From assembly GCA_964016885.1 (NCBI GenBank), contig OZ024745.1, forward strand, positions 46,376,001 to 46,440,000: a DNA stretch of 64,000 bases, given 5' to 3'. Position 1 is the stretch's first letter. Each line of letters opens with the position of its first letter. Positions 41,924 to 43,680 of this stretch are shown one piece after another. Made by a program: the position numbers and the translations under genes. Source of the DNA: Eledone cirrhosa (taxonomy: Eukaryota). The notes beneath the pieces were generated by a model. It ran no database searches. It was given only the letters and a program-made list of their open reading frames with translations, and had not been told where the DNA came from.

Positions 41924-42250
41924 TATATATATATATATAAATAAATATATATATATATATATAAATAAATATATATATATATATATAAATAAATATATAT
42001 ATATATATATAAATAAATATATATATATATATAAGTATGTATGTATACGTACATACATATATGTATACAGACGTACAGTAGCATGTATATATATACATAC
42101 AGGCACACACATATATATATGCACGTATCAGTTTACCGAACATTTATTATAATGCTCGGTTTGTTCGTTTGTAAACAAACAAACAGCCTGAATTACGCCG
42201 TACAGTGTTTAGGCAATCACGTCACCTTTTTGTTCAACACTGACACAGGA

Positions 42251-42293
42251 ACGATGTACTAGTTTCAAGCTTATTAGCTATCGTCAGCACTGT
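42251..42293 (-). ncRNA. Inverted copy of the same hammerhead ribozyme
   Basis: Reverse complement reads ACAGTG-CTGACGA-TAGCTAATAAGCTT-GAAA-CTAGTA-CATCGT. Confidence 0.7.
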
Positions 42294-42643
42294 ACGGCGT
42301 AATTCAGGCTGTTTGTTTGTTTACAAACGAACAAACCGAGCATTATAATAAATGTTCGGTAAACTGATACGTGCATATATATATGTGTGCCTGTATGTAT
42401 ATATATACATGCTACTGTACGTCTGTATACATATATGTATGTACGTATACATACATACTTACATTTAAGTAAGTGCCGTACTAAGAGTGAGAAATGAAAT
42501 TTCGTTTCATTCTATTCCATTTATCGTTTTCGGTGCGCCTGGCCGACTGAACTCACTCGATATGCAAATTAGGCTGCTCGGCCGTTAATTTTCATAAGGA
42601 AAGTATGTACTTTTGGACGTTCAACCATCTGGCAGAAAGGTAT

Positions 42644-42686
42644 ACGGTGCTGACGATAGCTAATAAGCTTGAAACTAGTACATCGT
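42644..42686 (+). ncRNA. Type I hammerhead ribozyme (minimal, palindromic stem III ACTAGT)
   Basis: Stem I ACGGTG/CATCGT; CTGACGA; T-AGCT-aata-AGCT-T; GAAA; CTAG-T-A (GUA cleavage after 42680). The base of stem II is a non-canonical U-U. Confidence 0.75.
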
Positions 42687-42963
42687 TCCTGTGTCAGTGT
42701 TGAACAAAAAGGTGACGTGGTTGCCTAAACACTGTACGGCGTAATTCAGGCTGTTTGTTTGTTTACAAACGAACAAACCGAGCATTATAATAAATGTTCA
42801 GTAAACTGATACGTGCATATATATATGTGTGCCTGTATGTATATATATACATGCTACTGTACGTCTGTATACATATATGTATGTACGTATACATACATAC
42901 TTACATTTAAGTAAGTGCCGTACTAAGAGTGAGAAATGAAATTTCGTTTCATTCTATTCCATT

Positions 42964-43680
42964 TATATATATATATATAAAGAAATATATATATATATAT
43001 ATATATAAAGAAATATATATATATATATATAAAGAAATATATATATATATATAAAGAAATATATATATATATATAAAGAAATATATATATATAAAGAAAT
43101 ATATATATATAAAGAAATATATATATATAAAGAAATATATATATATACAAAGAAATATATATATATACAAAGAAATATATATATATATATATATATATAA
43201 AGAAATATATATATATATATATATATATAAAGAAATATATATATATATATATATATATAAAGAAATATATATATATATATATATATAAAGAAATATATAT
43301 ATATATATAAAGAAATATATATATATATATATATATATAAAGAAATATATATATATATATATATATATAAAGAAATATATATATATATATATATAAAGAA
43401 ATATATATATATATATATATATAAAGAAATATATATATATATATATATATAAAGAAATATATATATATATATATATAAAGAGAAATATATATATATATAT
43501 ATATAAAGAAATATATATATATATATATATATATAAAGAAATATATATATATATATATATATAAAGAAATATATATATATATATATATATAAAGAAATAT
43601 ATATATATATATATATATAAAGAAATATATATATATATATATATAAAGAAATATATATATATATATATATATATATAAAG

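Follow-up and report, generated by a model that had tools for sequence, protein, structure and literature searches.

How does a non-coding unit of 442 nt come to lie in a genome as one and a half turns in one direction, joined head to head to a partial turn in the other? This question is raised by a locus of the octopod Eledone cirrhosa, situated in a window of 64,000 nt (positions 46,376,001 to 46,440,000 of contig OZ024745.1, assembly GCA_964016885.1), the whole stretch of DNA that was analysed and from whose first letter the positions below are counted. A sequence-only reading had interpreted the locus as a retrozyme-like repeat, reverse-transcribed from a circular or multimeric RNA. Judged by its sequence, it is a young insertion of an octopod non-LTR retrozyme which behaves like a non-autonomous Penelope-like element (PLE), a membership that rests on structure.

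On its left, the element adjoins a (TA)n/(TATATATATATAAATAAA)n microsatellite (41870..42031, no strand), itself next to the 5'-truncated end of an RTE-like LINE ORF (40499-41860, minus strand). The inverted arm (42032..42294, minus strand) spans 0.6 turn, unit positions u119-u379 in a numbering where u1-u442 are window positions 42525-42966 (u1 = 42525), and its outer end, on the 42032 side of the minus strand, is the short, tail-less S site (...CATACTTA followed by TATA). The direct arm (42288..42966, plus strand) covers the 442-nt unit 1.54 times (u206-442, then u1-442), in agreement with the 1.5 turns proposed earlier, and stops on the 42966 side of the plus strand at the long, tailed L end (...CCATTTAT followed by ATAT). 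Only this arm has the PLE-type 'tail' of about 57-63 nt (42904..42966, plus strand), which is bounded by the S site at u379-386 and the L site at u442. On the right, the target is a long (TA)n/(TA)nAAAGAA compound microsatellite (42967..44640, no strand). We discarded a placement of the element within a single continuous RTE, as the RTE piece after 44700 is on the opposite strand.

Comparing the window with itself, we recovered the repeat of period 442, with 1 mismatch in 237 nt between 42288-42524 and 42730-42966, and the inverted copy, previously placed at 42032-42293, which extends over 42032-42294 and is nearly identical to 42643-42905 along 263 nt (1 junction mismatch, 2 further substitutions and one 2-nt microsatellite indel). 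The homology at the head-to-head junction (42288..42294, no strand) had been overstated: instead of the 12 nt CACTGTACGGCG, it amounts to 7 nt with 1 mismatch (CACTGTA versus CACCGTA in the template, 3 exact). The fall of the inversion at stem I of the hammerhead had also been given too much weight; inner junctions of the family fall all round the unit, with no fixed palindrome, and it is the outer ends that follow a two-site rule. The absence of coding capacity was borne out, no ORF from ATG within the element exceeding 73 aa in the ORF list of the window, where longer ORFs begin in the inverted arm or in the flank and pass through TA repeats. The octamer noticed in the spacer, ATGCAAAT, is located at 42562..42569 (plus strand) and is intact in 118 of the 133 unit turns that cover it; its putative role as an snRNA-type promoter is a lead by analogy with newt satellite 2, taken from a citation in PMC2220036.

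Hammerhead cores (CTGACGA...GAAA...GTA) are present at 42650 on the plus strand and at 42287 on the minus strand. The first belongs to a predicted type I hammerhead (42630..42697, plus strand), with a cut predicted after the GUA at 42680, as had been read. Its stem I (CGGUG/CAUCG) is extended beyond an internal loop, its stem II has a U.U base and its stem III consists of a single A-U pair closing a palindromic CUAG. Of the second hammerhead claimed for the minus strand (42257..42292), the core is indeed kept, but the junction removed the distal part of stem I and left 4 of the 5 proximal pairs, so that this truncated and mismatched copy is likely crippled, being weak or inactive.

The core motif recurs in each unit. 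In 30 hand-picked distinct copies, whose kinship inflates such tests, 96.8% of the cells are paired and one pair changes on both sides; over 129 hammerheads this covarying stem I pair is G.U in 52, U.G in 47, A-U in 24, U-A in 2, C-G in 1 and mismatched in 3. The monomeric hammerhead fold, with a predicted energy of -10.6 kcal/mol, is less stable than the minimum-energy fold by 7.5 kcal/mol; for the stem III palindrome, self-pairing at -6.8 kcal/mol is predicted. Folded as a circle, the unit reaches -136 kcal/mol versus -101 +/- 6 for 40 shuffles, a value that comes partly from a TA-rich palindrome. A search of Rfam detected neither hammerhead, and its weak miRNA matches, which arise from the TA-rich hairpin and lie far below the cut-off, were discarded. 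Self-cleavage is predicted only, by these models. In the literature, amphibian hammerheads with a self-pairing stem III cleave as dimers (PMC7229834), and 8 of 9 Xenopus retrozyme dimers failed to cleave in vitro (preprint by Li et al., bioRxiv 10.64898/2026.07.22.740005).

Searched genome-wide, the unit proved to be multi-copy, with tandem arrays. The exact 32-nt hammerhead core has 9,768 matches in the 3.0-Gb genome and its reversed control 0, so the repeat is not a product of chance; a degenerate pattern gave 28,521 matches and its control 4, both figures being counts of motif matches and not of insertions. We fetched 175 loci (top DNA matches, the first positions on C1, variant-pattern matches and three loci from the PLE search), a non-random sample biased toward copies with a hammerhead. 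The family is dispersed over many chromosomes and, among the fetched loci, comprises several sub-lineages with about 80-100% identity to the window unit and with units of about 420-510 nt. The description of a non-coding, retrozyme-type family with multi-turn copies was thus confirmed: homogeneous arrays of 5-10 turns exist, the youngest of which (L211-L215) comprise up to about 10 turns with internal differences of 0.2-0.5%. The window copy, with about 1% internal divergence, is young as had been judged, though not the youngest. It contains a single sense hammerhead and is probably a dead end, whereas at least two consecutive hammerhead units, by which Li et al. recognize an 'active' copy, occur in L111 and L211-L215, in line with the earlier view that tandem copies lie elsewhere. 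Five hammerheads are found in L111 (G000:C1:19315052-19316767), in alternating 420/422-nt units (ABAB) where like units show 0-4 mismatches (A-A 4, B-B 0) and A-B pairs 14-16, a period that would fit a rolled dimer or equally a local duplication. Separately, about 36 of 66 short-spacer hammerhead matches have the same exact stem II deletion (CTGACGATAGCTTGAAAC), spread over many contigs, which could reflect slippage between AGCT repeats that happened repeatedly, or else the mobilisation of a variant whose ribozyme is dead.

The ends of the copies follow a rule. We called 176 insertions, of which 76 are single-armed, 6 complex and 94 head-to-head; among the latter, 20 have one unclassable end and 74 can be classed at both. 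In hammerhead sense, 3' ends fall at S or at L, about 60 nt apart, usually into (TA)n, and 5' ends are scattered. Of the 74 classable insertions, 69 combine one S with one L end, 3 are L+L and 2 are S+S (p 9e-16 versus random pairing), which leaves 5 rule-breakers. When L101 and L102, which both touch the edge of the fetched DNA, are dropped, S+L accounts for 67 of 72, and the rule held in separate sets (46/48 in the first, 20/23 in the second). Arm length varies from the 57-nt tail alone to 7.5 turns. The target flanks have median microsatellite-like stretches of 19.5 and 23 nt, absent on both sides in 24 of 166 insertions, all absolute figures rather than relative to the genome background.

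The inner ends carry a second signal. Those of L arms fall within u366-405 in 15 of 69 insertions, versus 3 of 69 for S arms (Fisher p 0.004), and L-arm lengths peak at 40-80 nt (11/69), each later 40-nt bin up to 440 holding 1-5, in a count where short S arms in TA-rich sequence are under-called and pieces below about 30 nt are missed. The arrest of L arms at the S site suggests that both DNA strands prime on one RNA, because the L-primed cDNA would there meet the primer sitting at S; a hairpin at the S site that halts RT could also cause this stall. The joins themselves are irregular: among 31 junctions of young copies, 12 overlap by at least 2 nt, 6 by 0-1 and 13 contain extra bases, some apparently templated. 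Such apparently templated bases resemble polymerase-theta joining.

The arms of one insertion are alike in divergence. Same-arm and opposite-arm divergences are similar in all 6 two-armed long arrays that can be compared (0.003/0.003, 0.003/0.002, 0.038/0.036, 0.051/0.046, 0.056/0.053 and 0.011/0.011). The arms are mostly of one sub-lineage, with L114 and L161 as possible exceptions, and rare variants are shared across arms in L120 and in L212, where 2 of them are common to all 8 pieces. In total, only 4 of 99 rare variants are common to both arms; since most are unshared, a one-molecule origin is not proven by sequence, and because the copies descend from few masters, such sharing is mostly uninformative. 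We regard it as unlikely that the arms derive from two RNAs which a PLE dimer keeps in fixed register, or from self-priming or template switch with endonuclease trimming of one tail. In favour of such an origin are the 7 of 69 insertions in which both arms exceed one turn, the sub-lineages perhaps mixed in L114 and L161, and the published proposals of self-priming (PMC3846280) and of an endonuclease-mediated resolution for the tail (PMC8557442). Against it are the halt of L arms when they first reach the S site, the rare variants common to both arms of L212 and L120, and the scattered inner junctions, with no fixed palindrome.

One insertion, L026, lies in the 3' UTR of another PLE, for which the empty sites L070 and L149 are available; it has a target duplication of 6-18 bp and is the only clean empty-site case, in a place that is no microsatellite. 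The ends of its duplication match 6 nt at each start site (ATTTAA at S, ATTTAT at L), and on this single case 3' overhangs may therefore anneal at both sites. Duplication-like repeats of 17-22 bp flank L013, L039 and L120 and are candidates, identified without an empty site.

Which machinery recognizes these two sites? A search for the GIY-YIG family gave 10,597 candidates, of which 150 were scored, so coding PLEs are abundant in this genome, with ORFs carrying RT and GIY-YIG of up to 938 and 1096 aa. They form several families with RT, a CxxxxCxxC linker of the Neptune/Nematis kind (PMC8557442), GIY-YIG and hammerhead variants of their own. In 9 two-armed coding PLE insertions read by eye, one tailed and one tail-less end were clear in 7, probable in 1 and unclear in 1, the tails here measuring about 35-65 nt. 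Since the S/L end rule is the PLE 'tail' signature, and the same in the coding PLEs of this genome, mobilisation by a PLE is likely. The locus is, we believe with good though not full confidence, an insertion of a high-copy, non-coding 442-nt non-LTR retrozyme with a predicted hammerhead, likely placed in trans by a PLE RT/GIY-YIG protein.

The element itself contains no RT and GIY-YIG ORF between pseudo-LTRs, as an autonomous PLE does. We found no sequence in common between the unit and the coding PLEs in 50 sampled loci of the 10,597 GIY-YIG candidates, no parent PLE in 20 ten-kb PLE regions, and none through hammerhead patterns with other stem II lengths, whose 72 and 66 matches are mostly family indel variants or chance. 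The L end of the unit resembles, by eye and with no statistic attached, the pyrimidine-rich ...CTATTCCGTTTA end of the L103/L110 family. It could be argued that the unit is the solo pseudo-LTR of an autonomous PLE outside our sample and that the copies are its 5'-truncated stubs; that sample had 50 loci and PLE ends look similar to those of the family. However, the multi-turn arms, of up to 7.5 turns, all run from u442 into u1 and on to the hammerhead, closing the unit upon itself with no ORF, and PLE protein matches occur in 8 of 114 family loci, all at least 200 nt from the element (three inspected). We consider this explanation quite improbable, and the latter count also contradicts a constant attachment of the copies to a coding PLE. 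Units found beside PLEs in L085, L102 and L152 were rejected as PLE parts, as they sit in TA runs at PLE ends, and so was the L101 array, 2.5 kb from the ORF.

The template of the retrozyme can be approached through the cleavage site, which is crossed by 147 of 189 arms and at least twice by 31 of them, numbers inflated by the choice of loci. Arm starts within 5 nt of the site are few (1 of 189, versus 4.7 expected), and cleaved linear monomers are therefore not the template. Crossing without pile-up would fit a circular or an uncleaved multimeric RNA, as originally proposed. Pooled divergence within insertions is 3.1% for tandem and 3.4% for inverted comparisons, no lower than to the nearest other loci, so the tandems arose mainly during insertion rather than through subsequent crossing over.

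This last result bears on the alternative of a repeat of satellite or MITE type that multiplied through local recombination of DNA, by unequal crossing over or fold-back, without an RNA intermediate. Arrays and palindromes are indeed present, L111 may be a local duplication, and unequal crossover is proposed for retrozyme tandems in the preprint by Li et al. (bioRxiv 10.64898/2026.07.22.740005). Such a process is at odds with a family dispersed over many chromosomes, with fixed 3' ends and random 5' truncation, with adjacent turns, distant turns and opposite arms equally diverged, as if born together, and with an anatomy identical to that of coding PLEs. It is largely refuted, and we give it hardly any credence.

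Between the two kinds of RNA, new long arrays are most simply derived from a circle, but would also fit homogeneous linear multimers or local duplication, and on sequence grounds we lean somewhat toward a circular template. A linear, uncleaved read-through multimer of young tandem arrays, inserted by a PLE with the hammerhead incidental and no circle, appears rather unlikely, albeit with several points in its favour. The main in vitro substrate of the anole PLE is uncleaved RNA and hammerhead cleavage is dispensable in vitro, according to PMC11167929, so that insertion can do without a circle; homogeneous young arrays of 5-10 turns exist, and the monomer hammerhead is predicted to be weak. However, daughter arms cannot outgrow the parent array, and new long arrays would therefore call for a circle or for template jumps. 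Sub-lineages have moreover kept the hammerhead core and the stem I pair, and the ABAB period of L111 would agree with a rolled dimer, or else with a local duplication. Among read-run contigs, X1 covers a 2-kb gene-plus-flank stretch in one contig and is DNA-like; X6 contains only the PNO1 transcript region 62104-63109, RNA-like by this criterion, plus unit contigs covering about u1-u345, which give no strand, ends, level or circularity, would look alike under host-intron read-through and were not counted as evidence. X4 and X5, from other organisms, contain 80-95% variants of the unit at low depth.

With a circle as the favoured template, the following scenario can be drawn. Multi-unit loci would be transcribed and the hammerhead, probably as a dimer through the palindromic stem III, would free unit-length RNA, which is likely ligated into a circle. 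A PLE protein would then nick both strands of AT-rich or (TA)n DNA, about 18-22 nt apart here, leaving 3' overhangs; double nicking has been shown in vitro for the anole PLE, whose tail lies between two RT start sites, whose two target strands are both cut and extended, and whose protein is predicted to be a dimer (PMC11167929). The genomic pattern shows two DNA ends that start at the two fixed RNA sites, one each, both sites probably being on one RNA molecule. Each cDNA runs for its variable distance through the cleavage site, and the two would be joined head to head by short microhomology or a few added bases, to give an inverted arm, a partial tandem and a tail at one end. Tentatively, and with rather less than even confidence, we propose that PLE integration is an obligate two-site twin priming, in which a dimeric RT/endonuclease acts with a stagger of about 18-22 nt in (TA)n on a single circular retrozyme RNA. 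Each 3' overhang would pair over a few bases with one of two loop sites, and two RTs would chase each other round the circle, producing exactly one tail per two-armed insertion. If true, the PLE tail, the inverted pseudo-LTR and the retrozyme tandems would be one event, of which this family gives thousands of natural products.

The twin priming of L1 yields two cDNAs from one RNA, the second started from the second target strand, and these are joined head to head by microhomology; priming starts at the poly(A) and at a variable internal site, and the arms do not overlap. In the octopod family, by contrast, both sites are fixed and the arms overlap or exceed one turn. The class of plant-type LTR retrozymes, with type III hammerheads in LTRs and a 4-bp target duplication, does not correspond to this family because of its type I topology and of duplications of 6-18 bp in L026 and 17-22 bp in the candidates.

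The metazoan non-LTR retrozymes of coral, mussel and axolotl, as described in PMC7229834 and by Li et al. (bioRxiv 10.64898/2026.07.22.740005), are closer: they too have non-coding tandem units of 150-450 nt with a type I hammerhead, thousands of copies, co-occurring PLEs and a self-paired fold. The window stem III is like that of axolotl HHR_Amex1 (1 bp plus a palindromic tetraloop) and the U.U of stem II like HHR_Amex2. The octopod family differs in that no parent pseudo-LTR was found among the 50 sampled PLE loci. PLEs are named only as a strong candidate for retrozyme mobilisation in PMC7229834, and neither inverted arms nor a two-site end rule is described in the accessible text of that paper ('inverted' has 0 matches) or of the preprint.

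EN+ PLEs (Neptune/Nematis-type, Naiad, Poseidon; PMC8557442, PMC3846280, PMC11167929) resemble the family in their partial tandems, 5' truncation, head-to-head inverted copy, one-end tail, (TA)n targets, hammerhead upstream of the tail and two start sites; tail, inverted copy, partial tandems and (TA)n targets are documented in the first two sources, and a tail frequently confined to one end has been published before. The octopod family differs from them by having no RT/EN ORF, a tail of 57-63 nt instead of 30-40 and arrays of up to about 10 turns. Non-autonomous elements of Chlamys such as MRC1 (PMC8557442) are also ORF-less PLE derivatives with multicopy head-to-tail insertions, but these are similar to their autonomous partners at the 3' end and have no canonical hammerheads. 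The movement of retrozymes, and the inverted repeats and one-sided tails of PLEs, are stated open questions in PMC7229834, PMC8557442 and the 2026 preprint. The octopod family ties a retrozyme to PLE machinery by the mechanics of insertion, and not by co-occurrence or pseudo-LTR trees, and its countable rule, one S and one L end with L arms stalling at S, constrains any PLE model. The open-access literature, taken without supplements or Repbase, gave no cephalopod retrozyme and no count of an S/L-type end rule. The kind of retrozyme is already known, and the near-strict one-S-one-L rule with its L-arm stall is a mechanistic addition that supports two-site twin priming.

Other elements were observed along the way. 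The 3' end of another high-copy PLE family occupies 45000-45700 of the window (plus strand), with the end of an EN-like ORF, a (TA)n terminus and, at about 45394, a type I hammerhead of its own (CTGACGA...GAAAGAAC); copies of 78-94% exist in at least 10 fetched loci. It is followed, at 45700-53100, by about 7 kb of strand-skewed microsatellite of TATACA type. A third small hammerhead element, with relatives in L230, L183 and L227, lies at 53640-54050 (core at about 53818, inverted arms of about 250 nt, TA-run flanks). The PLE 3' ends of L061, L091 and L109 have variant hammerheads with U for the first core C (TTGATAA, TTGAAAA) and a palindromic CCGG stem III, and the L090/L095 PLE family has a standard minimal hammerhead core. 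An RTE-like LINE with a PHD-like zinc finger in its RT region is present in several copies (window 40499-41860, 28974-30059 and 59362-60144), and a borderline tRNA-like match (29.8 bits) at 36935-36992 (minus strand) is possibly a SINE head. Finally, the window contains two single-exon ORFs: an MFS_1-like transporter of 652 aa (26072-28030, minus strand) and PNO1 of 245 aa (62193-62930, plus strand), with 87% identity to that of Octopus sinensis and 84% to that of Argonauta.
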